Shown piece after piece: positions 6,934 through 59,558 of a stretch of 64,000 nt of DNA. Position numbers and translations under genes: made by a program. How positions within the stretch are numbered: position 1 is the first letter of the stretch; the number at the start of each line of letters is the position of its first letter. Origin of the DNA: Bacteroidia bacterium (GTDB taxonomy: Bacteria; Bacteroidota; Bacteroidia; Flavobacteriales_D; Sanyastnellaceae); contig JAUICJ010000001.1 in NCBI GenBank assembly GCA_030427925.1, positions 235,388-299,387 of the forward strand. Direction: 5' to 3'. Under the pieces are notes generated by a model, which was not told where the DNA came from, did no database searches, and saw only the letters and a program-made list of their open reading frames with translations.

Positions 6934-7004
6934 GGGTGCAAGCTACATCACGCGTGGGGATGTTGGAAACGTTGGCGGCTGCGCTATTTTTGGCCTTCGT
7001 CATT

Positions 7005-7078: not shown

Positions 7079-7090
7079 CAGCGGAGAGCA

Positions 7091-7117
7091 ACCCCGGAGA
7101 GATCCGGGGTTTTTTTA
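7091..7117 (+). terminator. Rho-independent terminator after the tRNA
   Basis: CCCCGGA-GAGA-TCCGGGG hairpin (7092-7109) followed by T7. Confidence 0.75.
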
Positions 7118-7244
7118 TTTCATGATGGCACAAAAATTAAGTGACACGTGTTTGAAAGGATGTGATATGATATATTTGTGAAATACACTGTACGTTTTGA
7201 AATTCACGTCAAAATCATCGCATTCACTTGATTTCAGTTCGTCC

Positions 7245-8585: not shown

Positions 8586-8628
8586 ACTAATTTTGCGGCC
8601 GTGCCACGCGCGCTGAAGTGGTGGATTG

Positions 8629-8703
8629 GGCCCCGTAGTTCAATGGATAGAATAGGAGTTTCCTAAACTCTAGATCCGAGTTCGATTCTCGGCGGGGCTA
8701 CCA
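8629..8703 (+). tRNA. tRNA-Arg (CCU)
   Basis: Acceptor GGCCCCG/CGGGGCT, anticodon stem GGAGT/ACTCT with loop TTCCTAA (anticodon CCT), T-arm CCGAGTTCGATTCTCGG, discriminator A. CCA is encoded at 8701-8703. Confidence 0.88.
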
Positions 8704-8801
8704 TGCTGATTGTACAAGCCGAGCAAAGCCCATCGGAATTTCGTGGGTGAGCCCGGCTTCCTTGGGTGTTCCTCCTGGATGTGCCATCCGGCTGGCTGGG
8801 C

Positions 8802-9665: not shown

Positions 9666-9666
9666 C

Positions 9667-10491: not shown

Positions 10492-10780
10492 GATTGAGAT
10501 GACAAATGCGTTTCATCAAATTTATTCGCCCATTCATCGGTTTTTTGTTGAGAATGGGCGCCATGGAATGTGTGATGGCTCTATCTTCTTTGTCAGGAAG
10601 GCCGATGGGCCTCATTCAATCGATTAGCAATCAAATGAGTAACCTGTAGCTGAGCGGGGGAGCGTTGCGATTTCCCCTGAGGGCTTTTGCATGCCGTTTG
10701 GGAGAATAAAACAATGTGGAGTGCGGTTCTTGGGAATTCATTTCACCTAATTTTTGGCGTGCACTCAAGAACTTTGTGTC

Positions 10781-27812: not shown

Positions 27813-27920
27813 ACCGGACCGGGTCATTGCCGTCGGTGGGCGCAAATTAAAACGCAGTGCGCTGAAAATCAATTGATGTCCCGGGGACACGTCAAAGCGC
27901 GGCGAGCTGGGCGCGGGCGG
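27813..27920. repeat. 108-bp direct repeat, copy A
   Basis: Aligned by eye to 30606-30713 at a constant offset of 2,793 bp. 102 of 108 positions are identical, with a perfect 51-bp core at 27837-27887. Confidence 0.9.
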
Positions 27921-29193
27921 GATTCCTCGTGCCCGCGCCGCAATGAGTTCGCCAGTCGGTTGCGTCTGAAGTCAACATGCGGGAGCAAGGGGGCTTGCGC
28001 ATGAATACAAGGAACGGTTTAACGGTTTGGAGCGCAACCAGCTGTGAATACGGGCTTTTCGGCAAGAGTGCCATCCTTGAAAGGACGCTTGAAGGACATG
28101 GGTTGGAGTGGTTGCGCCGGTTGAAGCGGTAGTTGAATTCGTCGAGGGTTGATTGGAGGTGAGCTCCTGAGATTTTGTGGTGAATGCCTCGAATCCAGTT
28201 CTTTAGGGTGAAGATGTACCCGGGGAGTTCCCGGAAATTGGCTCCATCCTCGCTGCATTCGATGTTGTGCCATTTGCCGTCTGTTGCCTTTTGATCGCCG
28301 CGCCAGCCATCCGATGTGATGACGGCTTTTTCATGGACCATGTGATCAAGGGCTTCTTTGATGGAGTTCGATGTGGCGTCTTTCAAAACTCGGGCGTCGG
28401 CATTTTTGATCCTTCCGCGGCGCTTACCATCCATCGGGTATTCCACTTCGACGCACACTTGGACAAACTGCTTATTCCCTTTCGATCGTCCTGGCTTCCC
28501 AGGCTCAAAACCACCGATGAAGGTCTCATCGGCCTCCACATTTTCTTTGAGTTTGGCCCTTGGAAAACTGTTCAGCGCTCGCTGCACTCTGCGTTTGAAA
28601 AACCAAGCAGTCTCCTGGTGAATCCCGAAATGTCGGGCAAGTTCGCATGAGCTAACTCCTTTGCGCATAGTGGATAACACGTAAACCATGGCGAAAGCAT
28701 GCTCGATCGGAAACTTCAGTTTGTGGAAGATGGTGTGCGCTGTTGGAGACTCGTCGGAGAGGCACTTTTGGCAACGACGGTGCAGCGCCTTTTTGCCTTT
28801 GATCGAGGATTCAAGCGGCGACACCGCACCGGCAACAAACAGGAAGAAGCGCGTGACCTGGAAGTTGGGTTTGCACCAATGGCGGTAAAAACCCCAAATC
28901 ACGTAACGCCTCCACCAATCGCGGTTGGATTCATGGCCTATTGATTGTTTGGAGTTGGAAAGCGTTCGGAGGATGTCTTTTTCGTCCATGCAGCGTTCCC
29001 CCGCTTCTTCGATGACCACTTCCAACCATTTCCCTTCTGTGTAATGGTCGGTCAGGCGGTTGTGACAACTCAACTTCTGGCTCTTTTCTCGCAGGATGTT
29101 GCGAACGAGGTTCACGAAGGCCTCCTTACTTTTCTCGGTTTTCGGTGACTTTGAGGACGAGTTGGAATGTGGACTGCTCATCTTTCCCAGCAA
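27892..29193 (-). CDS. IS1595-family (ISXO2-like) DDE transposase, with N-terminal extension and borrowed C-terminus
   Basis: Zn-ribbon/HTH region (RRCQKCL...FHKLKFPIEHAFAMVYVLS...SSCELARHFGIHQETAWFFKRRV), a DDE region with VEADETFIGG, and the EFNYRFNRR motif. The gene is AT-richer than its surroundings. The last ~9 codons and the stop lie inside repeat copy A. Confidence 0.8.
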   Translation of the reverse strand: MLGKMSSPHSNSSSKSPKTEKSKEAFVNLVRNILREKSQKLSCHNRLTDHYTEGKWLEVVIEEAGERCMDEKDILRTLSNSKQSIGHESNRDWWRRYVIWGFYRHWCKPNFQVTRFFLFVAGAVSPLESSIKGKKALHRRCQKCLSDESPTAHTIFHKLKFPIEHAFAMVYVLSTMRKGVSSCELARHFGIHQETAWFFKRRVQRALNSFPRAKLKENVEADETFIGGFEPGKPGRSKGNKQFVQVCVEVEYPMDGKRRGRIKNADARVLKDATSNSIKEALDHMVHEKAVITSDGWRGDQKATDGKWHNIECSEDGANFRELPGYIFTLKNWIRGIHHKISGAHLQSTLDEFNYRFNRRNHSNPCPSSVLSRMALLPKSPYSQLVALQTVKPFLVFMRKPPCSRMLTSDATDWRTHCGAGTRNPARAQLAAL

Positions 29194-30605
29194 AAAGGAG
29201 CTTTATGGCCATCATATTCTGCCCGAATTCGAGAAGTTGTCGCCAAAAAACGGGTCGGTCAAGATCATCGCTTGACCCAACCTGCTTTTGCGGAAATCAA
29301 TCACGCCCTCTCCGTAGAAAAACGTCGGCGAAGAGTGCACAGAACTGATATCATCGCACATCACGCGCCCATCATCCCAAGGGGCTTTCCTTCTTGTTGT
29401 TCTGATTCCGGGTTGTCCGTAAACAACTGGAAACAAACGGAATAAACTCTCTTGTCGCGGATTTTCCAGAAGTGTGATATTGAATGATTTAATTTTGGAC
29501 GAGTAAAATAACATGCTCATCTATTTTTATACTCAAACGACACAGTCATGTTTAACGTCAATTTCTGTCGACTCCTTTTTGTTTTTGCTTTGGCATCGGG
29601 CGCATTGTCCCTCCAAGCCCAACAGGTTAATCGAGTTGAACTTTCCAACGACAAGAACTATTCCCGACTTGAGGTTGAGGAATTGCAACGCACCTTGGAT
29701 TCATTGAATGCCAGGGTCGACAGATTGATGAACCCCAGTTCAGGCGGATCGTCAGGAAGCGAAACAGCGACCCTTCCGACTTCTGGTCCTGAAGTGGAGA
29801 GAATCCTGACAGCCATCCACAACTGCGGCGATTCGTTGACGTATCAAGGCGAGAAATATGCTACCCGCCGGTTTGGCGCTCAATGCTGGTTTACGCAGAA
29901 CTTGCGAACGACGACTTTTTTGAATGGCGATGCATTGACTGAATTGACGTCAGACAACTACTCTCAAGTGCATTCACTTGGTTGGGAGAACCTCTACGTT
30001 TCACCGCCAAGTGAAGATGTTGAGGCCTATGGACATTATTATTCACCCGCTTCTGGTCGGGATGAGCGAGGTCTTTGCCCCAGCGGCTGGCACACGCCGG
30101 ATTCGTTGGATTGGGTGCGGCTCTTTGTCTACACGGGCGTGTCAGGTATCTCGGGGGCCAATAAACTGAAATCAGAAGAAGATAACGGCTGGGATGATTT
30201 CGGATTCAATTGGCGAATGGCAGGTCGTTCAGACCAATTTGCCGTCTTCAGTTTCGTCGGCGATGGCGGTTTTATCGCTTCATCGTCCGTATCTGCTGAA
30301 ACAGGCTATCACCAGGTGATGTATGTGGATCCTTACGGTAATGGTCTGGAGTGGGGTGATTTTTATCCGAGCGAATACGTATCCATGCGGTGCTTGAAAG
30401 ACTGATGTCTCAATGCACAGGCCATGCCGCTTTCTTCGTCAGAATTTGCGCTTCGCTTCGTGGTCGCAAAGCCCCCACAGGGCCCCGCTGCCGACACCTT
30501 CCACCCTTCGTCAAACGCGGAGAAGTAGAACATTTGAATGTCCTCCTTTTGCGACCGGCCTTGGGTTCTGATGAAGCACCTCAGGACGTTGTCGTAGTCG
30601 GGGTT
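27921..30605. mobile_element. Inserted AT-richer segment (IS1595-type transposase + FISUMP gene + GH17 relic) between the 108-bp repeats
   Basis: It is bracketed by near-identical 108-bp direct repeats. The composition shift is visible by eye, and it carries a transposase gene. I could not find terminal inverted repeats. Confidence 0.6.
29548..30405 (+). CDS. FISUMP domain protein, secreted (third paralogue)
   Basis: Signal peptide, CWFTQNLRTTTFLNGD, ERGLCPSGWHTPDSLDW, and a C-terminal VSMRCL. Confidence 0.8.
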   Translation: MFNVNFCRLLFVFALASGALSLQAQQVNRVELSNDKNYSRLEVEELQRTLDSLNARVDRLMNPSSGGSSGSETATLPTSGPEVERILTAIHNCGDSLTYQGEKYATRRFGAQCWFTQNLRTTTFLNGDALTELTSDNYSQVHSLGWENLYVSPPSEDVEAYGHYYSPASGRDERGLCPSGWHTPDSLDWVRLFVYTGVSGISGANKLKSEEDNGWDDFGFNWRMAGRSDQFAVFSFVGDGGFIASSSVSAETGYHQVMYVDPYGNGLEWGDFYPSEYVSMRCLKD

Positions 30606-30633
30606 ACCGGACCGGGTCACTGCCGCTGATGGG
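30439..30633 (-). pseudogene. 5'-truncated, frame-disrupted relic of a GH17 gene (3' end only)
   Basis: The reverse-strand translation GNPDYDNVLRCFIRTQGRSQKEDIQMFYFSAFDEGWKV parallels AEPGYENALKYFINAQSWSQKEDIPMFYFAAFDEAWKV of the GH17 at 14299-15183. The terminal GSGALWGLCDHEAKRKF-stop (compare GSVGAFWGIWDHLERRKF-stop) is in a different frame. Confidence 0.8.
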
Positions 30634-30713
30634 CGCAAATTAAAACGCAGTGCGCTGAAAATCAATTGATGTCCCGGGGAAACGTCAGAGCGCGGCGAGC
30701 TGGGCGCGGGCGG
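30606..30713. repeat. 108-bp direct repeat, copy B
   Basis: This is the partner of 27813-27920. It contains the last codons and stop (30685-30687) of the gene at 30685-31911 plus the downstream intergenic sequence. Confidence 0.9.
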
Positions 30714-31911
30714 CGTCGGGGTCGAGGCGGACGAGGAGGCGGAAGGCTTCGTCGAGGAGGGTTTGGGCTTCGGGGTCGCCGGCGTGGGCCTTGCGGGCGA
30801 GGTAGAGTTCGTGGATGAGCTCGAGCTCGGGGAGGCCGTAGGCGACGCCGGTGAAGCCCTGCACGGTTTCGAGGGGGCTGAAGCCGAATTCGTGCGTGGG
30901 TTCGATCATCGTGCCCTCGCCGAAGTCGTTCCAGGTCGCGAGTTGGAGGGCGTCGAGGTCGGCGTTGGAGGCGATTTCGAGGAGGTCGATCAGGGTTTGG
31001 CCTTGAAGGTGAGCGATTTCCCAGCCCAAACCAGCGCCCCACCCGCCGTCCGCGTAAAAGTCCTTGAACCCCGGATACGCCACGCCCGTCCGCGCCCCCG
31101 GCCCCTCGCTGAACGCCGCGACCGCCGCCAAATGATCCACGCCCCCACCGCCCCAAATCCACGCAAACTCACCGTCCGCCCCCATCTCGGCGCCCTCCCC
31201 CCAAATCGCATGCGTCCGCCCGCTCACCCCCACGTCCGCCCACTCCTCGGGCGTCTCCAACTCAATCGGCCCAAACACCCCCACCCACGGCTCGCCCTCC
31301 ACCCGGAAATACGCGGTGTCCGTGAAATGTCGCCCCGCGATGTGCGCCCAATCCAGCGCAGCCTGCCCGGCCGGCACGTTCGCCAACGTGCGGTCCTCGT
31401 ACATCAACGCATACTCCAGCCCGGCCCTGCGCAACGCGGCAATGAGCGCCTCCGTGGCCTCGTCGATGCGCCCATAATCCAGCACCCCGCTCGTGCCATA
31501 CCAGTCGATGATGGCCCCGTCGATCCCGCTGTACTTCATCAGCAACGTGTGGTACTCCAGCACGTCCTCGTCGAAGCTGGAATACGGGCCGATGAGGGGA
31601 TGGTAATGCGACGCGACGTCCGGCAATCCGTCGGCGCCGGTCGTCCACGGCTGGGCGTTGGCCATGGTCCAGTGGTGGCCCCAGGCGCCGTCGTGTTGAA
31701 GCGTTTCGAACCACGGCATGACGTGGGCGAGGACGGGGAGGGGGTTCGACTTCGCGACGGCGAGCGGGGCGGTGGGGCCGGCGGCGGCGGGCTCCTCCTC
31801 GCGACAGCCGCTTAACCAACTTAAAATACAAAAGGACAATACCAGGGCACTGTTCTTTCTCAGAAACAAGATTTGCTGAATGCCGTATCCCGATGAATGT
31901 TTTGGTGTCAT
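30685..31911 (-). CDS. Putative glycoside hydrolase lipoprotein (GH99/GH71-like TIM barrel; family uncertain)
   Basis: The ATG at 31911 gives a lipoprotein signal (LVLSFCILSWLSGC). HYHPLIGPYSSFDEDVLEYHTLLMKYSGIDGAIIDWYG resembles the GH99-like signature. The track start at 31944 is a TTG. Confidence 0.55.
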   Translation of the reverse strand: MTPKHSSGYGIQQILFLRKNSALVLSFCILSWLSGCREEEPAAAGPTAPLAVAKSNPLPVLAHVMPWFETLQHDGAWGHHWTMANAQPWTTGADGLPDVASHYHPLIGPYSSFDEDVLEYHTLLMKYSGIDGAIIDWYGTSGVLDYGRIDEATEALIAALRRAGLEYALMYEDRTLANVPAGQAALDWAHIAGRHFTDTAYFRVEGEPWVGVFGPIELETPEEWADVGVSGRTHAIWGEGAEMGADGEFAWIWGGGGVDHLAAVAAFSEGPGARTGVAYPGFKDFYADGGWGAGLGWEIAHLQGQTLIDLLEIASNADLDALQLATWNDFGEGTMIEPTHEFGFSPLETVQGFTGVAYGLPELELIHELYLARKAHAGDPEAQTLLDEAFRLLVRLDPDAARAQLAAL

Positions 31912-31984: not shown

Positions 31985-33289
31985 TCAAATTTTCACCTTT
32001 GTAACCACGGTGCTCGGCCGGTTCTTCTTCTTGTCAAATCCTTCCGTCACCTGATACCGGACGCGTTGTGATTTCATGTCCTCGGTGAGGCCGTTGCGGA
32101 ACAGCGTGGAACGAGCGAAGGCGTTGTCGCTGCCGTGGGGTCCTTTGATGAAGGCGGCTTTGAGGTTGGGGAGGACGCTGACGATGGTGCCTTCGAACCA
32201 CGGTTGCTGATCGGAAAGGGTGCGGTTGATTTCGGTTTGGAGGGCTTTGCGTGCTTGGGCGATGGTTGGGATGTCGGGGTTGTTGGGGTCGAGGTCGAGG
32301 CGGGAGAGGAGGGTGCGAAGTTCGAGCGGGATTTTCCAGCCCTTTTCGGTGCGGATGGCGAGGGAGGCAAGGGCGAGGGCTTTTGCGAGCGGGATTTGGC
32401 CTTCATCGATGAGTACCTCGCTGAGCTGCGCCCAGAAGGAAATCTTCATCTCGTCCCAGCCCGGAAGCGCCCGGAAATAGGCATCCAACGCCTCCTCCCG
32501 CCGGTTCAACTTCATCAGCACGTCGCCCAATTCGTCCCAAAGAAACCAGTCCCCCTTTTCGAGCGCAATCCGCTTCATTTCCTCGGCCGCTTGCTCTCCG
32601 TCGCCCAGTTCGATTTCGCAGAGCACTTTGCGTCGGCGCCACCAAATGTTGTTGTTATAATGCGGTTTCGTGACCGTTCGCAGCGCCTCATCGCACGCTG
32701 AGATGCAGTCTTCGTAGCGGCCGGCTTCGAGCAGGGCCTTCGTGAGGTGGGCGTAATATGCCTCTTGGTCGCTCGCCTGTTCCACTTTGCGACCGCCGGC
32801 CTCGAATTGCTTGCTGCGCGTGGAAAGGCGACTGGCATCCAGGGTTTCGAGCCATTCAATTGCCTCTTCCGCGTGATTCCCTTGTTGGTCCTCAAGGGCA
32901 TCGACAAGTTTGAAAAGTGCGGCCAAATGCGGACTGTACTCGTCATAAGGCTCTGCCAATCGCGCAATGCCTTTCATCGCATTCCTCAAGGTATTGATCG
33001 GTGTGGGCTGCTTCGCTAAGAACTGGGACTTGAAAATCGTCCAAGCATACAGGTTGCGGTTTGCGCTGTGATCCGGGTCAAGAGTGTACACTTCGCGGCA
33101 AATGGCCAACGCCTCATCGAGCCGATTCAACTTGTAATGCGCTTGGGCCAAACGCCACCCATCCCAAGCGTCCCGTTCTCCCTCCACGGACCAAAGTTGC
33201 TCAAATGCACGCGCCGCCTCGTCCCATTGTTTTACCTGCACAGCCTGCATCCCGGCTTCTCGCAGCTCAGTTTCTTGTTGTTCCGTCAT
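31985..33289 (-). CDS. TPR-repeat protein with C-terminal cold-shock/OB-like domain
   Basis: Trimmed to the ATG at 33289 (MTEQQETEL), which forms an ATGA overlap with the upstream helicase stop. Helical TPR-like repeats run throughout. The last ~70 aa (FEGTIVSVLPNLKAAFIKGPHGSDNAFARSTLF...VRYQVTEGFDKKKNRPSTVVTKV) follow the CSD pattern. Confidence 0.65.
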   Translation of the reverse strand: MTEQQETELREAGMQAVQVKQWDEAARAFEQLWSVEGERDAWDGWRLAQAHYKLNRLDEALAICREVYTLDPDHSANRNLYAWTIFKSQFLAKQPTPINTLRNAMKGIARLAEPYDEYSPHLAALFKLVDALEDQQGNHAEEAIEWLETLDASRLSTRSKQFEAGGRKVEQASDQEAYYAHLTKALLEAGRYEDCISACDEALRTVTKPHYNNNIWWRRRKVLCEIELGDGEQAAEEMKRIALEKGDWFLWDELGDVLMKLNRREEALDAYFRALPGWDEMKISFWAQLSEVLIDEGQIPLAKALALASLAIRTEKGWKIPLELRTLLSRLDLDPNNPDIPTIAQARKALQTEINRTLSDQQPWFEGTIVSVLPNLKAAFIKGPHGSDNAFARSTLFRNGLTEDMKSQRVRYQVTEGFDKKKNRPSTVVTKVKI

Positions 33290-35391
33290 TGCAATTGAAT
33301 GTTCAATGCGCGCAGCACCAGTTGGACCAAACTCGAATCCGACAGAGGAAGGGGAATCTCCTTGGATTTCTGCCCGTTTCCTTTGAAATAAAAGGCGAAC
33401 GTTGCCTCGCGATTTCCCCAATGAAATCGGTAATCGTCTTGGTAGGGAAGCGTCCGGACGAGTTCTACGTTCATGTCCGTTCCGATGAGCCGCTCTTTCA
33501 GGGCATCGAGGAAAACACCGCGAAGGAGCGGGGTGGAGGCCGAAGTGGGCAGGACCACGGCCGAATCATCGAAAGACCCTGCGCCATCATTGAACCGCAG
33601 CGGTTTTTTCACCAAAGGAGCGAGCAGCGCCTTGACCTGTTCGTCCGCGCACGTCACCTTCGAAATTTGAAACTTCCCATTGTAATGCACTTCCACCAAA
33701 GCCACGGATAAGGGAAATCGAATGAGGTAGTTGTGGAAAACGGGCCGATGCAGTTTGGGGCAGTGCCCTTCGAGTGCGTTCAAGACGGCTGCAGCAACGA
33801 GTTCCTGAGAAGCGGGCGCAAGCGGCAATGCCCAATCATCGAAGACCGCAGGCCGCGTGACCTCGATGGCTTCATCTTGGGGAACCGGGACCACTTCTTC
33901 CTCCGGCAACCCGAGCAGGTGCAACGATTTCGAGGCCCGGGTCATCGCCGTGTACACCCACCGAAAGAAGTTCTCATTTTGGCTTCCAAGATGCGTTTGC
34001 TTCAGGTTCAGGTAAACGTGCGGCCATTCCCCACCTTGCGCTTTGTGGCAAGTCATGGCGTACCCAAATTTCGCTTGGACGCAGTTGTAGTAAGGGTCTG
34101 ACATCAACGCGTTTGCGTACGCCATCGTGGACGGCTTGAGGTTCGGATTCCGGATTTTAAAATCGATGTACAATGCCCGCTGCTCATCGAGGGTCAAGAC
34201 TTTGTTGGAGTTGAACAAATAGGGCCAAAAAATAAATTGCTCCTGCGCGTGCAGTTCCCCATCTTTCAGCAATTTCACCTTCTTGAATGCCAAATCCACC
34301 TTCTGCTCCTTCACCACATTCCCGACCTTGTTCTTCAAAGTAATCTTTCTCTGAACAAGCCCATCGGCCACGGCCACCACCCGCACCAATTCGCCATTCA
34401 TGAAGGATGCAGCGGTCGAATACACGTTGCTTGTCACGAGGAGCGTTTCGCCAGGGTGTAGCAGATCCAGTTCGTCAAAGCAGGCCGATCGTACCTCTTG
34501 GTTGAAGTTCCGGGCTTCCTCGTTGGAGTGGGTGATGACGATGCGGTCGTTCGGTGGTGGGGTGCCTCGCTCGAGGTGCCACAACGCTTGAAGACTCGCC
34601 TCCGGCAGCTCTTTCACCACATCTCGCCCGGGCTCAATTCGAAGGTTCCAATCCCGCTTTTCGATGCAGGCTCGGACGTGATTCGCTTGCCGAATGATGT
34701 TGGAGTCCTGCGCTTGGCGAACCACCTCCTTCAAGGTGAATTCGGTGCACTTCAAGCCAAAGTTTTGCTCCAAATACTGCGCGTCTTGGGCGGGGCTATT
34801 CGGCTCCCCGACCGGGGGCAACTGAGCGGGGTCACCCACGAAGATGGCTTTCCTGGAATTGGTTTTTCGACCGATTTCCGTTCGTTTCACCCAATCCTCA
34901 AGCAATCGGCCAGTCCCGAATTTGATGTGTTCTTGCTCGTGTTTGGCAGCTGGAAACATGGACGCTTCATCGACGATGGAACAGTGGTCCAACGTCAGGG
35001 AAGAACTGTCCTCAATGCCGAATTCCAAAACGAGCGATTCCGAATGCTTGACCTCCTTTTCCGACTTTTCTACTTGGGCGGTTTTCCGATACACAAAGCT
35101 GTGAATGGTGGAGGTGGCGAATCCCGTTTTTTGTCGAAGGATCAACGCCGCCCGCCCCGTGAAGGCCATCATGTTGGTGCTTTCAGGCGGGTCAGGCAAG
35201 CGCTCTTCCTTCTGCCGTTGCTTCAGCCACTTCGCGATGCCCCTGGTCATGAACGTCTTCCCCGTTCCCGCCGCTCCGAAGAGGAGAAACACCTCCTCGT
35301 CGCTTTGAAAAAAGGCCTCCAACGCATCGAGCAGCCCCCGCTGCGAGGCCGTCAAGGAATCCAAGTTAAAATGTTCGTGTATTCGTGTCAT
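33286..35391 (-). CDS. RecD-like SF1 helicase (AAA_30 + UvrD_C_2) with ~190-aa tandem-repeat C-terminal domain of unknown function
   Basis: Walker A FGAAGTGKTF, Walker B IVDEASMF, FVGDPAQLPPVG, and a C-terminal helicase motif YAMTCHKAQGGEW. I prefer the ATG at 35391 over the TTG at 35412. Confidence 0.8.
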   Translation of the reverse strand: MTRIHEHFNLDSLTASQRGLLDALEAFFQSDEEVFLLFGAAGTGKTFMTRGIAKWLKQRQKEERLPDPPESTNMMAFTGRAALILRQKTGFATSTIHSFVYRKTAQVEKSEKEVKHSESLVLEFGIEDSSSLTLDHCSIVDEASMFPAAKHEQEHIKFGTGRLLEDWVKRTEIGRKTNSRKAIFVGDPAQLPPVGEPNSPAQDAQYLEQNFGLKCTEFTLKEVVRQAQDSNIIRQANHVRACIEKRDWNLRIEPGRDVVKELPEASLQALWHLERGTPPPNDRIVITHSNEEARNFNQEVRSACFDELDLLHPGETLLVTSNVYSTAASFMNGELVRVVAVADGLVQRKITLKNKVGNVVKEQKVDLAFKKVKLLKDGELHAQEQFIFWPYLFNSNKVLTLDEQRALYIDFKIRNPNLKPSTMAYANALMSDPYYNCVQAKFGYAMTCHKAQGGEWPHVYLNLKQTHLGSQNENFFRWVYTAMTRASKSLHLLGLPEEEVVPVPQDEAIEVTRPAVFDDWALPLAPASQELVAAAVLNALEGHCPKLHRPVFHNYLIRFPLSVALVEVHYNGKFQISKVTCADEQVKALLAPLVKKPLRFNDGAGSFDDSAVVLPTSASTPLLRGVFLDALKERLIGTDMNVELVRTLPYQDDYRFHWGNREATFAFYFKGNGQKSKEIPLPLSDSSLVQLVLRALNIQLQ

Positions 35392-35487
35392 CAAAAGGGC
35401 GTCTATTGCCAAATATCGGAATCTTCACTCAGCGTCACGAATCGCTCGCGTTGTATTTTATATCTTCAAAATTCAAATCGAATCCTC
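35392..35487. promoter_or_regulatory. AT-rich divergent intergenic region between the two helicase operons
   Basis: A 96-bp AT-rich spacer (..ttgtattttatatcttcaaaattcaaatcg..) between divergent starts. No confident Bacteroidota -33/-7 match was identified. Confidence 0.3.
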
Positions 35488-37563
35488 ATGACGGAAGAGC
35501 AACGCGCCCTTCAACTGCTTGTCGCGGCCACGGGCAACCCCGCGGTTCAATTCCGACCCGGACAGCTCGAATCCATCATGCAACTCGTGAGCCACCCCAG
35601 CCGGCAGCTGGTGGTGCAACGAACGGGTTGGGGCAAAAGCGCCGTCTACTTCATCGCCTCGAAGCTCCTCTCCGAACGCGGCGAAGGCATTACCGTCCTC
35701 GTATCCCCCTTGCTCGCCCTCATGCGCAACCAAATCGCAGCGGCTGAACGCATGGGAGTCCGCGCCCTAACGATCAACTCCACGAACTTCGAGGAGTGGA
35801 GCGCAGTGGAACAGCGCATCTTGCGCGGGGACTGCGACGTCCTTATGATTTCGCCAGAGCGCCTGAACAACCAGCGGTTTCGGGATGGGGTTTGGAGCCA
35901 AATCTCCAGCCGCATCGCCCTCCTCGTCATCGACGAAGCGCACTGCATTTCCGACTGGGGACACGATTTCCGCCCGCATTACCGGCTCATCGAGCGCCTC
36001 CTGCGCAACCTCCCTTCCAACGTCCGCGTCCTCGCCACGACCGCCACCGCGAATGACCGCGTGGTCGAAGACCTCCGAACCGTACTCGGCGCCCAGCTCC
36101 GCATCCTGCGCGGGCCGCTTGAGCGCAAGGGCCTGAGCTTGCAAACGGTGAAATTGGCGGACTCGGCGGAGCGCTTGGTTTGGCTCGACCAGGCCTTGCG
36201 GGCCATCGACGGCTGCGGCATCATCTACGTCTTGACGGTTCGGGATGCGCGCAACGTGACGAACTGGCTGGTCAGCCGGGGCCACGCCGTGGAGGCTTAC
36301 ACGAGCCAAAGCGATGACCGCATTGAGCTGGAAGACAAGCTCTTGAACAACGAGGTCCGCGCACTGGTGGCGACCGTGGCGCTGGGCATGGGCTTTGATA
36401 AGCCGGACTTGGCCTTCGTTTTTCACTACCAAATGCCCGGTTCGGTGGTCGCTTACTACCAGCAAGTGGGCCGCGCGGGCCGGGGCATTGCTCAATCTCG
36501 TGGGGTGCTTCTGAGCGGGCGCGAGGACGATGAGATTTCCACGTTTTTCATCGAATCCGCCTTTCCGAAGCCAGAGGAGGTCGCCATCGTCTTGGACGAG
36601 TTGATGGAATCCGAGGAGGGCCTTTCGATTGCCGAGTTGGAGCGGCAGGTGAACTTGAAGCGGTCGGCCATCCAAAAGGTGCTGCTGCTTTTGTCGATTG
36701 AAGACCCTGCTCCGGTCGCGAAGGAGGGCTCGAAGTGGGTTCCGACCATTCACGATGTTCCCGCCGCGTTTTGGGAGCGGGCGCAGCGGCTGACGCGGTT
36801 GCGTTTCGAGGAGTTGGACCAAATGCGCGCCTACGTGGACCTCCCGCCCGGAGAGCACATGAAATTCCTCCTCGACGCGCTCGATGGCCCTGCCCCCACA
36901 GAATCGGGAGGACTTCCTCACTTGAACATCGTGCTCGACCCTTCCCTTGTCGAACAAGCCCAGCGGTTCTTGAGGCGCGCTTACTTGATTTTTGAGCCGC
37001 GAAAGCGCTGGCCATCCGGCGTGCGCCTTCACTCCTTGGGCGCATCCGGCTCCATTCCGGCCTCCCACCAATGCATGACGGGCCAAGCCCTCTGCATCTA
37101 CAACGATTCAGGCTGGGGCAGGGCCGTGAAGCGTGGCAAGTATGTGGAGGGAAGGTTTGACGACGCGTTGGTGGATGCGCTCGTGGATTTGGTGGGCTCC
37201 TTGCCCCGCAGCCAGCCGCCCACGTGGGTGACGTGCATTCCTTCGCACCGGCATCCGGATTTGGTCCCTGACCTCGCCCGGCGCTTTGCCCAACGCATGA
37301 ACCTGCCTTTCCACCCCCTCCTCGCCACACACGTTCCGCACGCGGAGCAAAAAACGATGGAGAACAGCGCTTACCAGTGCGAGAATTTGGATCAAGCCTT
37401 CCGCCTTTTAAGCGCGCCACCGGCAGGACCTGTTTATCTTGTCGATGATATGGTCGATTCTCGTTGGACGTTTACGGTCGCTGCACACCTCTTGCTTTCT
37501 GCAGGTTCAGGTTCCGTGCATCCCATTGCGCTGGCTTCTTCAATGAATTCTGCGAATGGTTGA
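35488..37563 (+). CDS. RecQ-family SF2 helicase fused to a C-terminal ComF/GntX-type phosphoribosyltransferase-like domain (degenerate)
   Basis: Trimmed to the ATG at 35488 (MTEEQRALQ). Helicase motifs: QRTGWGKSAVY, LLVIDEAHCISDWGHDFRPHY, ATTATA, and YYQQVGRAGRG. The C-terminus WVTCIPSHRHPDLV...NLDQAF...GPVYLVDDMVDSRWTFTVAAHLL matches ComF-type PRTase topology, but the TTG of the PRPP loop is replaced by SRW. There is no HRDC domain. Confidence 0.8.
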   Translation: MTEEQRALQLLVAATGNPAVQFRPGQLESIMQLVSHPSRQLVVQRTGWGKSAVYFIASKLLSERGEGITVLVSPLLALMRNQIAAAERMGVRALTINSTNFEEWSAVEQRILRGDCDVLMISPERLNNQRFRDGVWSQISSRIALLVIDEAHCISDWGHDFRPHYRLIERLLRNLPSNVRVLATTATANDRVVEDLRTVLGAQLRILRGPLERKGLSLQTVKLADSAERLVWLDQALRAIDGCGIIYVLTVRDARNVTNWLVSRGHAVEAYTSQSDDRIELEDKLLNNEVRALVATVALGMGFDKPDLAFVFHYQMPGSVVAYYQQVGRAGRGIAQSRGVLLSGREDDEISTFFIESAFPKPEEVAIVLDELMESEEGLSIAELERQVNLKRSAIQKVLLLLSIEDPAPVAKEGSKWVPTIHDVPAAFWERAQRLTRLRFEELDQMRAYVDLPPGEHMKFLLDALDGPAPTESGGLPHLNIVLDPSLVEQAQRFLRRAYLIFEPRKRWPSGVRLHSLGASGSIPASHQCMTGQALCIYNDSGWGRAVKRGKYVEGRFDDALVDALVDLVGSLPRSQPPTWVTCIPSHRHPDLVPDLARRFAQRMNLPFHPLLATHVPHAEQKTMENSAYQCENLDQAFRLLSAPPAGPVYLVDDMVDSRWTFTVAAHLLLSAGSGSVHPIALASSMNSANG

Positions 37564-38650
37564 TTTTCAGATTTCCCCCGATACCGAGGTGGCCTTGCTG
37601 CTCACATCGACGTTGAAGGCCAAACCCGATGCGCAGCCGCTGACCTTAACCGAGTACAACCGTGTGATGCGGGGGTTGGTTGAACGCGGCATGCGGCCAG
37701 CCGAGTTGTTGAACGGCATTCCAGACGGCCTGATGGAGGCGGCGGGCGACCGGCTGGCCCGCTTGCTCGGACGTGGCGTGGCACTTGCCGATGCCCGCGT
37801 GGCGTGGTCCAACCGAGGCATTTGGGTGGCAGGTCGCAGCGATGAGCATTACCCCCAACGCATCGCAGAACAACTGAAAAACCAGCGTCCCCCTTTGTTT
37901 TACGGCGTCGGAAATCCCGAGCTCATGAACCGGCCCAGTTTCGGCATGGTCGGTTCACGGGAAACTTCGGAGGATGTGTTGAATTGGGTGCAGGAATTGG
38001 CCGCCGAGCGCGTGGCGCTGGGCGAAGTGGTGGTATCGGGCGGCGCGAAGGGCGTGGATTTGGCGGCGATGGTGGGAGCGTTGGAAGCGGGGGGCGGCAG
38101 CATCGGATTGTTGGCAAATGATTTGGCCAAACTCGCCCTCTCCAAACCCTTCCGCACCCCCCTTCGCAACGGCAACCTGCTGCTCCTTTCCGCCTCGGAA
38201 CCCGAAGAGCGGTTCAAAGCATGGAAGGCCATGGAGCGCAATAAGTTCATCTACAGCATGTCCAAGCAGCTTGTGGTGGTCGCCTCCGCCTCGGGCAGTG
38301 GGGGTACGTGGGCGGGCGCGATGGAAAACCTCGAGCACCGCTTTTGCACGGCGACCTACTTGCGACATGATGTTGGAGATGCCGGGCTTTCTGCGCTTCA
38401 TCGGCTCGGAATTCCATGGTGGGGCGCAGTGGACGCCGCGCCCCAAATGACCGAGTGGGAGCGAATCCGGAAGCACCTCTTGAATCACGGGCCCGATGGC
38501 CTGAAGAACATTCGCAAGGCCATTGAGTTCCCCGGTAAGGAAGGAACCTTGAAGGGCCTTTTGTTGGAACGGGTTGAATCGGGGGATTTGGTCCGAAAAG
38601 GAATCAAATACGCGGTCAGCGATGGCCACCAAGGCACCTTGTTCGAATGA
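37556..38650 (+). CDS. DprA/Smf-like (SLOG/Rossmann) protein with C-terminal winged-helix-like region
   Basis: The ATG at 37556 overlaps the RecQ-like stop by 8 nt. The core is GMVGSRETSEDV...VVSGGAKGVDLAAMVGALEAGGGSIGLLANDL...RNKFIYSMS..VVVASASGSGGTWAGA. Confidence 0.8.
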   Translation: MVDFQISPDTEVALLLTSTLKAKPDAQPLTLTEYNRVMRGLVERGMRPAELLNGIPDGLMEAAGDRLARLLGRGVALADARVAWSNRGIWVAGRSDEHYPQRIAEQLKNQRPPLFYGVGNPELMNRPSFGMVGSRETSEDVLNWVQELAAERVALGEVVVSGGAKGVDLAAMVGALEAGGGSIGLLANDLAKLALSKPFRTPLRNGNLLLLSASEPEERFKAWKAMERNKFIYSMSKQLVVVASASGSGGTWAGAMENLEHRFCTATYLRHDVGDAGLSALHRLGIPWWGAVDAAPQMTEWERIRKHLLNHGPDGLKNIRKAIEFPGKEGTLKGLLLERVESGDLVRKGIKYAVSDGHQGTLFE

Positions 38651-39972
38651 AAATTGATAAAAAAAATCGGGAGTTTCAGGAAGCTGCCGACGCGGTGCTC
38701 CAAGGCACGGAATCGCTGTTTTTGACAGGCCGAGCTGGCACCGGAAAGACCACCTTTTTGAAGCACATCCGCTCGAGTGCCACCCGACGAACCGCAGTAG
38801 TCGCCCCGACGGGCATCGCGGCGTTGAATGCCGGAGGCATGACCATCCATTCACTCTTCGGCGTTTCGCCTTTTTGGGACCTCGCTACCATGACCCCCGA
38901 AGAAGCCGCGCGGGAAGTGCGCCTGTCTCCTCGGAAGCGCAAAGTGGTGGAAAAACTGGAGTTGCTCATCATCGACGAGGTTTCGATGGTAAGAGCAGAT
39001 TTATTGGACGTGGTGGATGCGGTTTTGCGCCGATACAGTACGCGCGCTGCGGGCAAGGTAATGCCGTTCGGCGGCGCGCAGGTGGTCATGATCGGCGACC
39101 CTTACCAGTTGCCTCCGGTGGTGAGGCGGGAACAACGCGAGGCGCTTTTGGCCCGTTACTCCAGCCCGTTTTTCTTCGATTCGGAGGCGTTTAAGCTGTT
39201 GGCCCCCCAAGTCATCGAACTCCAAAAGATCTATCGCCAAAGCGACCCCGAGTTCATCGGCTTGCTCAATTCCCTTCGCGATGGAGTGGTCACCGAATCC
39301 GCCCTGGCGCCCTTGAAATCCCGGGTTCAACCGGGTATCCTCGAATCCGTTCCAGAAGGCTACCTGACGCTCTGCACCCACCGCAACACCGCCGAAGAAA
39401 TCAATGATCGGGAACTGAGAAAACTGGACGGGAAGCAACGCACTTACGAGGGCAGTTTGAAGGACAAATTCAACGCTTCCGAGGCACCTGCCCCCGTTCA
39501 ATTGGAGTTGAAAGTTGGGGCTCAAGTGATGTTCGTGCGAAATGACCCCGACGAACAATACCAAAACGGCTCCCTGGCCGAGGTGCTCGAAGTCCACAAG
39601 CATCGGGTCAGGGTGCGATTGCTCAACCACCCAGATGAGGCGCCGTTCGACGTGGAGTCGGTGAAGTGGGAGAAGAAGGAACTCCAATTGGCCGATGGCA
39701 AGATGAAGGAGGAAGTCATCGGCACCTACACGCAGTTGCCTTTGCAATTGGCGTGGGCCATCACGGTGCACAAGAGCCAGGGCCTGACCTTGGACCACGT
39801 GGTCGCGGATGTTGCGCGCGCCTTCGATTCAGGCCAAACCTACGTCGCCCTCTCCCGCTGCACCTCCCTCGAAGGCCTCATCCTCCCCGCCATGCCCAGC
39901 CTCCGGTCCATCCGCGTCGCTCCCGAAGTGCGCGCCTTCATGTCCAATTCGAAGCGCTCTCTCGGTACTTGA
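38647..39972 (+). CDS. Pif1-family SF1 helicase
   Basis: ATGA overlap with the DprA-like stop. Motifs: LTGRAGTGKTTF, LLIIDEVSMV, VMIGDPYQLPPV, and AITVHKSQGLTLDHVV...YVALSRCTSLEGL. Confidence 0.85.
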   Translation: MKIDKKNREFQEAADAVLQGTESLFLTGRAGTGKTTFLKHIRSSATRRTAVVAPTGIAALNAGGMTIHSLFGVSPFWDLATMTPEEAAREVRLSPRKRKVVEKLELLIIDEVSMVRADLLDVVDAVLRRYSTRAAGKVMPFGGAQVVMIGDPYQLPPVVRREQREALLARYSSPFFFDSEAFKLLAPQVIELQKIYRQSDPEFIGLLNSLRDGVVTESALAPLKSRVQPGILESVPEGYLTLCTHRNTAEEINDRELRKLDGKQRTYEGSLKDKFNASEAPAPVQLELKVGAQVMFVRNDPDEQYQNGSLAEVLEVHKHRVRVRLLNHPDEAPFDVESVKWEKKELQLADGKMKEEVIGTYTQLPLQLAWAITVHKSQGLTLDHVVADVARAFDSGQTYVALSRCTSLEGLILPAMPSLRSIRVAPEVRAFMSNSKRSLGT

Positions 39973-40047
39973 GCCCATCCGTGAAGCGCCGTCGCGCATC
40001 CATGAACCCCGAATCCATCCCGGCGATGGAGGCCGTAAGTTCGCATC

Positions 40048-40482
40048 ATGGAACCCCGAAAGTCCCGCATGGAACTGCGCTCAGCGGCCTTCACCCGAGC
40101 GATCCGTCGCCTCGGGCAGGGCATCGACCGCGTGCCGCCTCGCGCCGACGATGAGGAGTTGACCATGGAAGAGGAAGGCCTGATCCAGCGCTTCGAGTAC
40201 TGCTTCGAATTGGGGTGGAAGCTCTTGCAGGATGTGGCGACGGACCTTCACGGTCAGCGGCTCGGTGGACCGCGGGCGGTCATCCGTTGGGCCACCGCGG
40301 AGGGCTGGGCGGAGGACGGGGAGGTGTGGTTGTCGATGTTGCAGAGCCGCAACGTGACGACGCACGTTTACGACCGGGCGACCATCCCGCCCGTGTTGCA
40401 GAAAATCCGGGGCGTGTATTTTAGGGCCTTACATGGACTTGAAGAAGCGGCTCGAAATCATTGCGCGCGCGGATCGGATTGA
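40048..40482 (+). CDS. HI0074-family nucleotidyltransferase substrate-binding (HEPN-like) protein
   Basis: GLIQRFEYCFELGWKLLQD...MLQSRNVTTHVYD is the recognisable family core. Confidence 0.8.
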   Translation: MEPRKSRMELRSAAFTRAIRRLGQGIDRVPPRADDEELTMEEEGLIQRFEYCFELGWKLLQDVATDLHGQRLGGPRAVIRWATAEGWAEDGEVWLSMLQSRNVTTHVYDRATIPPVLQKIRGVYFRALHGLEEAARNHCARGSD

Positions 40483-40486
40483 ACCG

Positions 40487-40825
40487 ATGCGGTGGGGCAT
40501 CGGTCAATCCTTTTGGGACGGGCTGTGTGAGGTGTTCGCCGCTCATCCGACCATCAAGGCGGTGGTGTTGTTTGGTTCCCGGGCTCGGGGGACCCAGCGC
40601 AAGGGTTCGGACGTGGATTTGTGCGTGTTCGGCCGCGAATTTTCATTCGATGACCGGCTCGCTGTCATGGACCAAATCGACGACCTCTGGTGGCCCTACC
40701 ACGTGGACATCATCCATTGGGAGTCGAGTCGCTCCCCGGAGTGGCGACAAAAAGTCCGCCTCGACGCCCGGCTCGTTTACCAGCGTTCCGGCTCCGCGGA
40801 ATTGCCCCCTCAATTGACGGCCTGA
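40487..40825 (+). CDS. Minimal nucleotidyltransferase (MNT, HI0073-like)
   Basis: VVLFGSRARGTQRKGSDVDLCVFG is the NTase GS...D.D motif. I chose the start at the ATG at 40487, 4 nt after the HEPN stop. The ATG at 40433 is an alternative. Confidence 0.8.
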   Translation: MRWGIGQSFWDGLCEVFAAHPTIKAVVLFGSRARGTQRKGSDVDLCVFGREFSFDDRLAVMDQIDDLWWPYHVDIIHWESSRSPEWRQKVRLDARLVYQRSGSAELPPQLTA

Positions 40826-43233
40826 CACCTCGCCACCGACTTCAAGCTCCGGGCCGTGTATTCCGCGGGCTTGCCCTGTTCAATTTCAAATGAAACGCGC
40901 CGGGTCTCACCGGGCTCAAGGGCGAATCCGTTGTCCTCGAACCACCCCGGCACATCGGCCTCCAATCGGACGACCGGAACGTAGTAAGGCGCGGTGACTT
41001 CGACGCCGCCGGGTACGCCGTGGATTTCGACCGGCGCATGCGGAGGCCGGAACTCCAACGGGTTGACGAACAAGGCCGTGCGGCGACCTTCGCTCGACGT
41101 CCAGCCGAGGTAGGTGTGCGCCGGATCGGCGGACCAGGGAGCCAACGCGTCGAGGACGATGGCGGTTTGGCTGTGGGGCGCCAAGTCGATGGCGCGCTGC
41201 ACCCTCCGCCGAACTTGCCCATCCGGTGTTTTCAATTCAAACTGAACCGTATCGCGCCACGGGGAAGGACCGTCGTTGAAGGCGATGAAGACCAGGGAGT
41301 CCGTGCGCTCGCGTTGCCAAAGGACTGCGCGGGGTGCGTTCGCGCGGCGGGCGGCGTAGTGGCCGAGTTTCCATCGCCCCGCCCAGTCCACGGTGGACCA
41401 GGAGACCGCGGGCCACACGTCGTTCAGGGACCAGTAGAGCGAACCGGCGTAGCGGCCGGCGCTGGTACGGTGGCGTTCGAGGGCGTGCTGGAGGCCCAGG
41501 GCTTGCGTGGTTTGGCTTCGGAAAATCCAGTCGTCCAAATCCCCGTCCGCCGGTGCCCCCACTGCCTTCCCCATGAAGTGCAGCATCATGTCCCACCCGT
41601 CGAACCCGGGCTCCAGCCAATCCATGCGGCTCCGCTGGCGGTACTGCAGCGCGGAATCCCCGAACGCCTCGACGCCCGCCTCCCGCAGCGTGTGCCGATC
41701 CGGTAAGCTCTGCAACCCGTACTCGCTCGCAAACCGCCCCCGGTGCCGGCTGTAGTAATCGAAATCCCCCAGCCCAAACCAAATGCCCCATGCGTGCTCG
41801 TCCCCGCCTTCCCCGCGGTTGGGCGACGACGGCCAGTAAAACGCATCGCTTTCGGCCGCCACCACGCGCGGTAACAGGTCATTGAACACCGTTTCGTAAT
41901 CCGCCCAAACCCGCGCGCTGTCCGCCCCATGCAGGCCATACAGGTCCTGCCACCCCCATTCGTACCACGCCCGTTCCACCTCGTTGTTGCCGCACCAAAG
42001 CGCGAGGCACGCGTGGTGCCGCAGCCGCCCCACTTGCTCGCGCGCCTCCGCTTCCAAGTTGGCCAGGAAGGCCGCATCGCCCGGCACCATGGAACAAGCA
42101 AAGGCGAAGTCCTGCCAAACCAGCACCCCCGCCTCATCGCACGCCTGATAAAACGACTCCGGCGGGTAGATGCCACCACCCCAAACCCGCAACATGTTCA
42201 TGTCCGCCGAAACCGCCTGCTCCACCGTTTCAATCCATTTTGAAGCGGCGCGCACCTCGTGGAAATCCGGCGGGACGATGTTCGCGCCGCGCGCGTGGAT
42301 TGGGACGCCGTTGACGTGCAGGGCGAATTGGGGGCCGAAAGCGTCGGGGGTTTGGACCCACTCGAGCGTGCGCAATCCGAGGCGAGTCGTGCGCTCTACC
42401 CCAGTGGCCTCGTGCCTCCACGGCAGGGTGTACAGCGGCTGATCGCCCATGCCAAGCGGCCACCACAGAGCCGGTTGCTCGATGACGAGCGTGTCGCCAT
42501 CCCAATTCCAGTCCCCTTGCAACGTCCAGCCAGCCCGGTTGTGCACCGCCACCCGAGCGGAGGCTGCGGAAGCCGTGAGCACTTCGCACCACGGCGTCGG
42601 CGCATCGGTCCAGCCGCCCGCCGCAGGGTTCACCCACCGCACCATCCCCGTGATGCCAGGGCCCGCAAGCCGCGGCCCCCAGTCCCAGCCGAACTGGTAA
42701 GGGGCCTTCCGCGTGTAGGGACTGCTCTGCTTACCGATGGGCCGGGGTTCATTGCCCGCGGGCAATGCCGCCGAACCCCCAGCGGCCTCAAGGCCACGGG
42801 CCGCCACCGGGTCGAAGCGCACCACCAGCTCGCGCTCCCCGTCGCCTGCCGGGAAATCCGCGCTGCGCCACGTCCGGAGCGCATTGTTCGCCTCGAGCAC
42901 CACCGCCCCATCCACTTCCACCGTCGCATACGTGTCCAGCCCGTCAAACACCAGGAACGTCGCATCGCCGGCGGACCAGCCTTCCGGCCGCACCAGCTCC
43001 AGCCGATACGTCCAAACCGAATCTTCGACCCATTGGACCGCCCCTTCGTTGGTCCCCAAAAACGCATTCGGAACCCGTCCGGCCCGCTCCAATTCCAGCA
43101 ACACATGCCCCGGCACTTCCGCCGATCCGATCCCATCGAGCACCCAGCCCGCCCGCAATTCCACGGCCTCCGGTGCCGCCGAGCGCCCGCATCCCAAACC
43201 GACGGCCAACGCCGCCCAAAGCCATCCTTTCAT
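40810..43233 (-). CDS. Glycoside hydrolase family 2 (beta-mannosidase-like)
   Basis: 807 aa with a signal or lipoprotein-like N-terminus (ALAVGLGC). It has the GH2 sugar-binding, Ig-like and TIM architecture with WCGNNEVERAW and WPSSP motifs. Confidence 0.75.
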   Translation of the reverse strand: MKGWLWAALAVGLGCGRSAAPEAVELRAGWVLDGIGSAEVPGHVLLELERAGRVPNAFLGTNEGAVQWVEDSVWTYRLELVRPEGWSAGDATFLVFDGLDTYATVEVDGAVVLEANNALRTWRSADFPAGDGERELVVRFDPVAARGLEAAGGSAALPAGNEPRPIGKQSSPYTRKAPYQFGWDWGPRLAGPGITGMVRWVNPAAGGWTDAPTPWCEVLTASAASARVAVHNRAGWTLQGDWNWDGDTLVIEQPALWWPLGMGDQPLYTLPWRHEATGVERTTRLGLRTLEWVQTPDAFGPQFALHVNGVPIHARGANIVPPDFHEVRAASKWIETVEQAVSADMNMLRVWGGGIYPPESFYQACDEAGVLVWQDFAFACSMVPGDAAFLANLEAEAREQVGRLRHHACLALWCGNNEVERAWYEWGWQDLYGLHGADSARVWADYETVFNDLLPRVVAAESDAFYWPSSPNRGEGGDEHAWGIWFGLGDFDYYSRHRGRFASEYGLQSLPDRHTLREAGVEAFGDSALQYRQRSRMDWLEPGFDGWDMMLHFMGKAVGAPADGDLDDWIFRSQTTQALGLQHALERHRTSAGRYAGSLYWSLNDVWPAVSWSTVDWAGRWKLGHYAARRANAPRAVLWQRERTDSLVFIAFNDGPSPWRDTVQFELKTPDGQVRRRVQRAIDLAPHSQTAIVLDALAPWSADPAHTYLGWTSSEGRRTALFVNPLEFRPPHAPVEIHGVPGGVEVTAPYYVPVVRLEADVPGWFEDNGFALEPGETRRVSFEIEQGKPAEYTARSLKSVARCQAVN

Positions 43234-57204: not shown

Positions 57205-59385
<2,181 letters not shown>

Positions 59386-59558
59386 GGACCAAATGTACCA
59401 ACCCCTCCCCGGACCCCCCGACGCAATTTGCAGGCGCATGCAACGAATTCACAAGCGCTACGCCACGCGCCGGCTGCGAATTTTTTCAGCATTTGGTGAA
59501 CGGTCGACGCGTGGAATGGCTATCTTTGTCCTCGCTTCGGAAGAAGCACCAGCATTGA

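Follow-up and report, generated by a model that had tools for sequence, protein, structure and literature searches.

The locus analyzed here lies in a 64,000-nucleotide stretch of the genome of a Bacteroidia bacterium (assembly GCA_030427925.1, contig JAUICJ010000001.1, positions 235,388 to 299,387; referred to as the window and numbered from its first letter), in which seven genes, predicted to comprise three conflict-type gene pairs and a Pif1 helicase, separate two glycosidase genes. Two of the seven run leftward: gene A (33286-35391, minus strand, 701 amino acids [aa]), the helicase of a predicted TOTE pair, and its partner gene B (31985-33289, minus strand, 434 aa), joined by an ATGA overlap in which B starts at 33289 and the stop codon of A occupies 33286-33288. 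A divergent spacer of 96 bp (35392-35487) parts this TOTE operon from the PsyrTA operon, which runs rightward with gene C (35488-37563, plus strand, 691 aa), a predicted PsyrT/RqlH toxin, and gene D (37556-38650, plus strand, 364 aa), a DprA-like protein predicted to be the antitoxin PsyrA/RqlI; the two overlap by 8 nt (37556-37563). Gene E (38647-39972, plus strand, 441 aa), encoding a Pif1-family helicase of superfamily 1B (SF1B), follows with an ATGA overlap at 38647-38650. The last two genes are gene F (40048-40482, plus strand, 144 aa), which encodes a HEPN protein of the HI0074/NTase_sub_bind family, and gene G (40433-40825, plus strand, 130 aa), which encodes a minimal nucleotidyltransferase (MNT) and overlaps F by 50 nt (40433-40482). 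The flanking genes, a GH99-like lipoprotein gene on the left (30685-31911, minus strand) and a GH2 beta-mannosidase gene on the right (40810-43233, minus strand), belong to the core context.

A first-pass annotation, made from the sequence alone, had proposed that genes A to E, three accessory helicases among them, form one composite defence system of undescribed composition beside a toxin-antitoxin-type pair. Its gene inventory, coordinates and operon structure stand, as do the overlaps between A and B, C and D, and D and E, and the same seven genes were called independently on an identical metagenome contig. Its domain calls were likewise recovered by profile searches, which returned AAA_30/UvrD_C_2, TPR, DEAD/Helicase_C, DNA_processg_A, PIF1, NTase_sub_bind and Polbeta. 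The flanking GH99 and GH2 genes are GC rich as described (0.66-0.67), and the AT-richness ascribed to the island is a real but modest deviation, with a GC content of 0.584 over 31985-40825 and 0.578 over 31985-38650 against 0.62 in the rest of the window. The interpretation built on these features fares differently, as the assignment of the individual genes and the comparison of their neighbourhoods illustrate.

Genes C and D are assigned from end-to-end matches to the models of a characterized pair. Gene C aligns over residues 2-687 with positions 2-686 of the 689 in the PADLOC model for PsyrT (E 1e-253); it contains the Pfam domains DEAD and Helicase_C followed by the C-terminal domain of PsyrT, and shares 55-59% identity with homologs of ~690 aa from several phyla, including Proteobacteria and Bacteroidota. 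Its score lies above the NCBIfam recQ_fam subfamily cut-off and below the recQ equivalog cut-off. Gene D matches PADLOC PsyrA (E 2e-87) over residues 6-294 of 364 and Pfam DNA_processg_A (E 2e-32), and reaches 86 bits against the dprA equivalog, for which the cut-off is 191. As such, C and D are predicted to be PsyrTA, a toxin in which a RecQ-like SF2 helicase is joined to a phosphoribosyltransferase (PRTase), with a DprA-like antitoxin. PsyrTA is the same system as RqlHI (Sberro 2013; Russell & Mulvey 2015, PMC4670107; Millman et al. 2022, bioRxiv 10.1101/2022.05.11.491447), and it protects against phages (bioRxiv 10.1101/2022.05.11.491447).

In its architecture the window pair follows the known system, with a toxin of ~690 aa that carries the RecQ-like helicase at its N terminus and a PRTase-type domain at its C terminus, and with the gene for the DprA-like antitoxin immediately downstream, overlapping and on the same strand. 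It differs in that the last ~70 residues of the window PsyrA fall outside the match to the PsyrA model, and in that the Pif1 gene overlaps the antitoxin stop codon, an arrangement seen in none of the other PsyrT loci surveyed. The C-terminal domain of gene C had been read at first pass as a degenerate ComF-type PRTase. Because the motif LVDDMVDSRWT is invariant family-wide, as are GWGKS, DEAH and QQVGRAGR, in an alignment of 20 PsyrT sequences, we do not regard the domain as degenerate. Published work maps the toxicity of RqlH to its PRTase domain and shows that RqlI binds RqlH (PMC4670107). Pfam Pribosyltran found no match in gene C, also when the sub-region was searched in isolation; for some homologs the match is precomputed.

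ShosTA also combines a PRTase toxin with a DprA-like antitoxin, and both parts of the resemblance are detectable here, between the window PsyrA and ShosA (E 6e-19) and between the C terminus of PsyrT and ShosT (E 3e-6). ShosT, however, has no helicase domain, the two systems have distinct family models, and the window genes score far better on those of PsyrTA. What has been reported for ShosTA is that ShosT binds phosphoribosyl pyrophosphate (PRPP) and disturbs purine metabolism, and that the DprA-like ShosA requires binding of single-stranded DNA (ssDNA) and interacts with RecA in an ssDNA-sensitive manner (PMC11961720, PMC12961424).

Gene A is matched by the PADLOC model PDC-M16A (E 3e-151) and contains the Pfam domains AAA_30, UvrD_C_2 and TBP-TOTE (PF22721), the last at aa 627-694 with 44 bits (cut-off 27); a second TBP-TOTE match at ~aa 554-580 is weak (E 0.012). 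In an AlphaFold model (predicted local distance difference test [pLDDT] 83), two alpha/beta repeats follow beyond residue 525. The best Foldseek matches of this model are T4 Dda, RecD2 and Pif1; as the search with the whole model is dominated by the helicase core, it is uninformative on the TBP tail. Together, the domain matches and the predicted structure fit an SF1B helicase of the Dda/RecD2/Pif1 type with what may be a tandem TBP-like C-terminal region. The Walker A, Walker B and arginine residues are all invariant in the family alignment, and the protein scores far under the RecD2 equivalog cut-off.

The product of gene B begins with TPRs (Pfam TPR_2), continues with DUF7017 (PF22860; aa 216-333, 42 bits, cut-off 27.5), and is matched end to end (E 3e-48) by PADLOC PDLC01170, a model for proteins in which TPRs are fused with a cold-shock OB fold; its match to PDC-M16B is weak. 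For the C terminus (~aa 360-432), a profile made from four sequences and compared with the PDB gave 19 matches, all of them cold-shock proteins, with a best E of 0.0045. Pfam CSD remained unmatched, also with the C-terminal sub-region isolated, phmmer with the C terminus alone found nothing in the PDB, and a single-sequence AlphaFold model has a pLDDT below 50 at the C terminus and is unusable there. A cold-shock/OB domain at the C terminus of gene B is thus a moderately supported prediction.

TOTE stands for TPR, OB, TBP and Effector, the definition of Aravind, Iyer & Burroughs (2022) as given in PMC12458937. The TOTE conflict systems are equivalent to the PADLOC candidate PDC-M16 and are computationally described, with models in both Pfam and PADLOC. 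The window pair resembles them in that its helicase bears TBP-TOTE and in that its partner, which is translationally coupled, combines a DUF7017 TPR region with the predicted cold-shock/OB domain. Its OB domain differs in resembling generic cold-shock proteins and not the S1CSD-TOTE models of Pfam. The pair is also compact: gene A lacks the N-terminal DUF4145 that relatives of ~900 aa carry, and the pair has no separate effector domain, while RNase H domains figure in the published account of these systems. The only candidate effector is the SF1B helicase itself; a Pfam scan of the two proteins gave no nuclease, HEPN or DUF4145.

Of the 44 other loci tested, 41 share the two-gene layout of the window, with matches to DUF7017 and PDC-M16B in the open reading frame that immediately follows the helicase. 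With window gene B counted, both are found in 42 of 45 sequences, and S1CSD-TOTE domains in 21-30 of the 45. In eight metagenome loci (L094, L098, L103, L109, L112, L118, L129 and L142) a retron-type reverse transcriptase with the motif YSRYADD, matched by PADLOC reverse transcriptase models down to E 1e-98, heads a co-directional cluster. Most of these clusters have about six genes (for example, L098 5237-13718) and end in an A-like SF1B helicase and a DUF7017 TPR protein; they may represent a reverse transcriptase-associated variant of TOTE.

Two locus surveys place these pairs in a wider context. One was anchored on PsyrT and covered 80 loci, drawn from many phyla and each taken with its 10-kb flanks, together with 6-7 viral PsyrT loci from IMG/VR; the other covered 80 metagenome loci anchored on helicase A. 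PsyrT is immediately followed by a PsyrA homolog in 47 of the 80 PsyrT loci, and homologs of A, B, E, F or G lie within 10 kb in none of them (0/80). Among the viral loci, none of the 6-7 has a TOTE gene and PsyrTA stands alone. Conversely, neither PsyrT nor PsyrA was found in any of the TOTE loci (0/80), and the nearest homologs of gene A outside the clade (67-69% identity) form A+B pairs with no divergent PsyrT. In viral contigs, the search for the TOTE helicase gave just distant SF1 helicases of at most 29% identity. No locus among the ~166 surveyed combines the components, and each pair is therefore best regarded as an autonomous two-gene module. The patchy occurrence of PsyrTA across phyla at 55-59% identity indicates that it spreads horizontally.

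Two variations on the PsyrTA layout were seen in the same survey. In a mainly actinobacterial clade of PsyrT (L046-L084, 40-46% identity) most loci have no detectable PsyrA downstream, in agreement with a published note that Gram-positive bacteria frequently have rqlH but no rqlI (PMC4670107). Two tandem PsyrA-like genes follow PsyrT in metagenome-assembled genomes that bear the labels Rhodothermales and Bacteroidetes (L063, 12088-13890; L074, 12087-13899).

Gene E has a different history, as far as can be judged from its neighbourhood. It matches Pfam PIF1 (E 2e-30) and shares ~45% identity with many members of the widespread bacterial Pif1 family, among them several Bacteroidota proteins. 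It resembles bacterial Pif1 (e.g., Bacteroides sp. Pif1, PDB 5FHD) in its PIF1 domain, in possessing all SF1B motifs and in its compact size of 441 aa, and differs from many homologs in having neither of the C-terminal extensions common among them, HRDC or HTH_40. The closest comparison is offered by a syntenic relative (locus L002), in which an ortholog 72% identical to gene E stands in the order GH99 remnant, Pif1, MNT pseudogene, GH2 (68% identical) and a 243-aa gene (74% identical), with further collinear matches over the rest of the locus that reach window position ~50350. Genes of TOTE and PsyrTA are absent from this locus. Four other Pif1 orthologs (58-73% identical, including those of L168, L169 and L003) also have no PsyrA upstream. 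The first-pass view of Pif1 as an accessory gene of the island is therefore not borne out.

The alignment with L002 also delimits what sets the window apart. The L002 Pif1 gene lies 205 bp from the divergent GH99 remnant, and it is this intergenic region that the TOTE and PsyrTA block (31985-38650, ~6.7 kb) occupies in the window, leaving 73 bp on the GH99 side and 0 on the Pif1 side. The first six codons of gene E are AT-rich, unlike those of the L002 ortholog, which suggests an insertion junction at this point. Pif1 would accordingly be a resident, syntenic chromosomal gene that was probably there before the defence modules were inserted, and the ATGA overlap between psyrA and pif1 may be a by-product of the junction, with Pif1 now probably transcribed together with PsyrTA by read-through. 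Terminal direct or inverted repeats were not found around the block, and neither tRNA nor Rfam elements were found inside or adjoining it.

Genes F and G are assigned with similar reasoning to a third pair. Gene F matches Pfam NTase_sub_bind (PF08780, E 4e-26) and passes the cut-off of the NCBIfam HI0074 family (TIGR01987, 68.9 bits against 55.8), and it has an RX4H motif, RNVTTH, at residues 101-106 followed by VY. Gene G matches Pfam Polbeta (E 5e-17) and NTP_transf_2 and contains a GSX10DXD motif at residues 48-62. Gene F is on this evidence a putative RNase toxin and gene G its putative antitoxin, in keeping with the type VII HepT/MntA (HI0073/HI0074) systems, with which they share the HI0074 family assignment, the RX4H(x)Y and GSX10DXD motifs and the overlap of the two genes. 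They differ in that the MNT scores under the MntA_antitoxin equivalog cut-off of NCBIfam (51.4 bits against 60) and in gene order: in characterized HepT/MntA pairs the MNT gene usually comes first, and in the window the HEPN gene does. In L002 the slot between Pif1 and GH2 (10759-11142) is taken by a homolog of the MNT (44% identity) that is interrupted by two in-frame stops and has no accompanying HEPN gene; the toxin-antitoxin pair there seems to be in decay. At least the MNT, if not the whole HEPN/MNT pair, would thus be older than the split from L002 and would have been acquired separately from the TOTE and PsyrTA block.

From this combination of family assignment, surveys and synteny, we conclude that the island most probably consists of described modules (TOTE/PDC-M16, PsyrTA and HEPN-MNT) inserted around a resident Pif1 gene, a reading to which we give a probability of roughly 0.8. 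The first-pass idea of a defence or conflict island is upheld. The region is an ordinary defence island and contains no new five-gene system; both operon modules had been described before, PsyrTA/RqlHI with experimental validation and TOTE/PDC-M16 computationally.

Several observations weigh against this reading or parts of it. The Pif1 gene has an island-like GC content (0.58) in addition to its ATGA overlap with psyrA, and the difference from L002 could reflect either an insertion in the lineage of the window or a deletion in L002. For the TOTE pair, Pfam S1CSD-TOTE-1 and S1CSD-TOTE-2 do not match gene B, even with the sub-region isolated; the proposed role in defence rests on domain logic and on PADLOC candidate status, and no published experimental test of TOTE/PDC-M16 was found in the literature searched. 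Lastly, the divergent adjacency of TOTE and PsyrT is very probably present in a second organism. On a 2.2-kb contig (L167, Logan sample SRR19514073) with a PsyrT just 71% identical to that of the window, a divergent open reading frame starts ~100 bp upstream of PsyrT (1-172). Its 24 aa can be aligned with the TOTE helicase profile at positions 3-21 with 5.9 bits, a score reached by 0 of 1000 shuffles. With this probable adjacency and that in a near-identical strain (L165/L166), a joint transfer of TOTE and PsyrTA, or cooperation between them, is possible.

These last observations lead to the alternative that survives best, namely that the TOTE pair and PsyrTA are one cassette, which moves as a unit and whose two modules cooperate in function, for instance by way of a common divergent control region or of ssDNA made by the TOTE helicase that titrates the DprA-like antitoxin, with Pif1 not part of it. 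The same divergent arrangement, with a spacer of 96-100 bp, is shared by the window, L165/L166 and probably L167; the spacers of the window and of L167 both have, as seen by eye, the motif CAAATATCG ~20 nt from the helicase start; and both modules occupy a single intergenic gap relative to L002. It is conceivable from this that TOTE and PsyrTA were acquired, or moved, together within a narrow clade. The surveys argue against a general association, with no TOTE gene in the genomic or viral PsyrT loci, no PsyrTA in the TOTE loci and no PsyrT beside the closest TOTE pairs outside the clade. Moreover, L167 may be just the orthologous locus of a related organism, and PsyrTA functions as a two-gene system in published assays. 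We consequently consider such a cassette unlikely. An extended version, in which TOTE and PsyrTA are a co-mobilized, cooperating cassette with a shared ~100-bp control region that has captured Pif1, and in which a helicase (that of TOTE, Pif1 or both) feeds the ssDNA-sensitive DprA-like switch, seems to us more doubtful still.

In the spacer itself (35392-35487), Shine-Dalgarno sequences are not visible and no sigma-70-type promoter match was found, and scans for sigma-70 promoters and terminators gave matches no more numerous than in shuffled sequence. As visible Shine-Dalgarno sequences are lacking in this organism, the sigma-70 and terminator models may not apply to it.

That all five genes constitute one integrated, undescribed defence system, as first proposed, is very improbable. 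Tight packing and coupling, through the psyrA-pif1 ATGA overlap and the 96-bp divergent spacer, speak for it, as does the gene order, which is kept in L165/L166 as in the window. This strain is, however, near-identical, with 98% identity for PsyrT, 97% for PsyrA, 99% for Pif1, 97% for B, 95-97% for GH99 and 96% for HEPN; identity of 96-99% in every gene except A reflects vertical conservation only. The expected co-travel of the five genes in unrelated genomes was accordingly found in this strain only, with the TOTE-PsyrT part probably on one short contig (L167). The pairs occur without each other in the surveys (0/80, 0 of 6-7 and 0/80 loci), orthologs of Pif1 stand between GH99 and GH2 also where the other four genes are missing, and for each pair an established family model of its own is matched over the full length, so that the five-gene reading is largely refuted by the neighbourhood data.

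Least tenable is the view that the genes serve housekeeping recombination, repair or competence (as RecQ, DprA, RecD and Pif1) and not defence: it can draw on family resemblance to recQ_fam, dprA and RecD2 and on the likeness of Pif1 to a chromosomal gene, but PsyrT, PsyrA and A score far under the RecQ, DprA and RecD2 equivalog cut-offs and match defence models end to end, PsyrTA is patchy across phyla, the block is absent from the syntenic L002, and the window encodes at 57205-59439 (minus strand) a canonical RecQ, already recognized at first pass (there at 57205-59385), in which RQC, HRDC and Zn-binding domains are found. This RecQ bears an extra C-terminal HTH_40 after its HRDC, a domain that is also fused to many Pif1 homologs.

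With described modules around a resident Pif1 as the preferred reading, a mechanism can be sketched for each of them. The helicase and NTP-binding motifs are intact in A, C and E, the PRTase loop is conserved in C, and the catalytic motifs of the HEPN and MNT proteins are present. By analogy with RqlHI and ShosTA, PsyrA would hold PsyrT in check until infection lifts this restraint, and the freed PsyrT, through its genotoxic PRTase domain, would then cause DNA and nucleotide stress by which the infection aborts. In the TOTE pair, the TPR-cold-shock protein and the TBP tail would serve as sensors of, and adaptors to, single-stranded or structured nucleic acid of an invader, with the 5'-3' SF1B helicase as the output. 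The MNT, if it acts as in HepT/MntA, would neutralize the HEPN RNase.

Comparison with the near-identical strain also reveals an exchange within the TOTE helicase. Over ~33330-35040 (minus strand; L165 ~5180-6880), the nucleotide identity of the window to L165 drops to ~0.8, from 0.95-1.0 on both sides, which defines a patch inside gene A at ~aa 119-685. In the patch the synonymous divergence (dS) reaches 0.71, compared with 0.06-0.18 for genes B, C and D; the ratio of nonsynonymous to synonymous divergence (dN/dS) is 0.19. With a dS 4-10 times that of the neighbours and a dN/dS of 0.19, the patch is best explained as a divergent allele of gene A imported by homologous recombination. Positive selection, or an acceleration of gene A in place, was considered and is ruled out by the same dN/dS and the raised dS.

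Beyond the island, two further stretches of the window stand out. To the left, a 2.8-kb insertion of low GC, flanked by the two copies of a direct repeat of 108 nt (27813-27920 and 30606-30713, 94% identical), carries an IS1595-family transposase (27892-29193) and a gene with a Fib_succ_major domain (29548-30405). The insertion (27813-30713) is absent from L166, where GH99 abuts an ammonium transporter gene. The recombination patch in gene A and this nearby IS-associated insertion are typical of the behaviour of defence genes. The second, which may also be variable, is a stretch of lower GC (0.50-0.58) at 7000-11000; it holds tRNA-Met (7005-7079), tRNA-Arg (8629-8703), a Kelch-like open reading frame (7197-8585) and, on the minus strand, a tandem pair of Fib_succ_major paralogs (8802-10491).

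In conclusion, the analysis removes a false lead, in that a helicase-rich cluster resolves into a patchwork of PsyrTA, TOTE/PDC-M16, HEPN/MNT and a resident Pif1. Insertion of a defence cassette, as this locus exemplifies, can result in the translational coupling of a housekeeping helicase to the gene of an antitoxin, and the allelic replacement confined to the TOTE helicase fits a diversifying exchange of defence alleles. As a compact pair with no separate effector domain, the TOTE genes of the window also present a clean two-gene candidate for experimental test.

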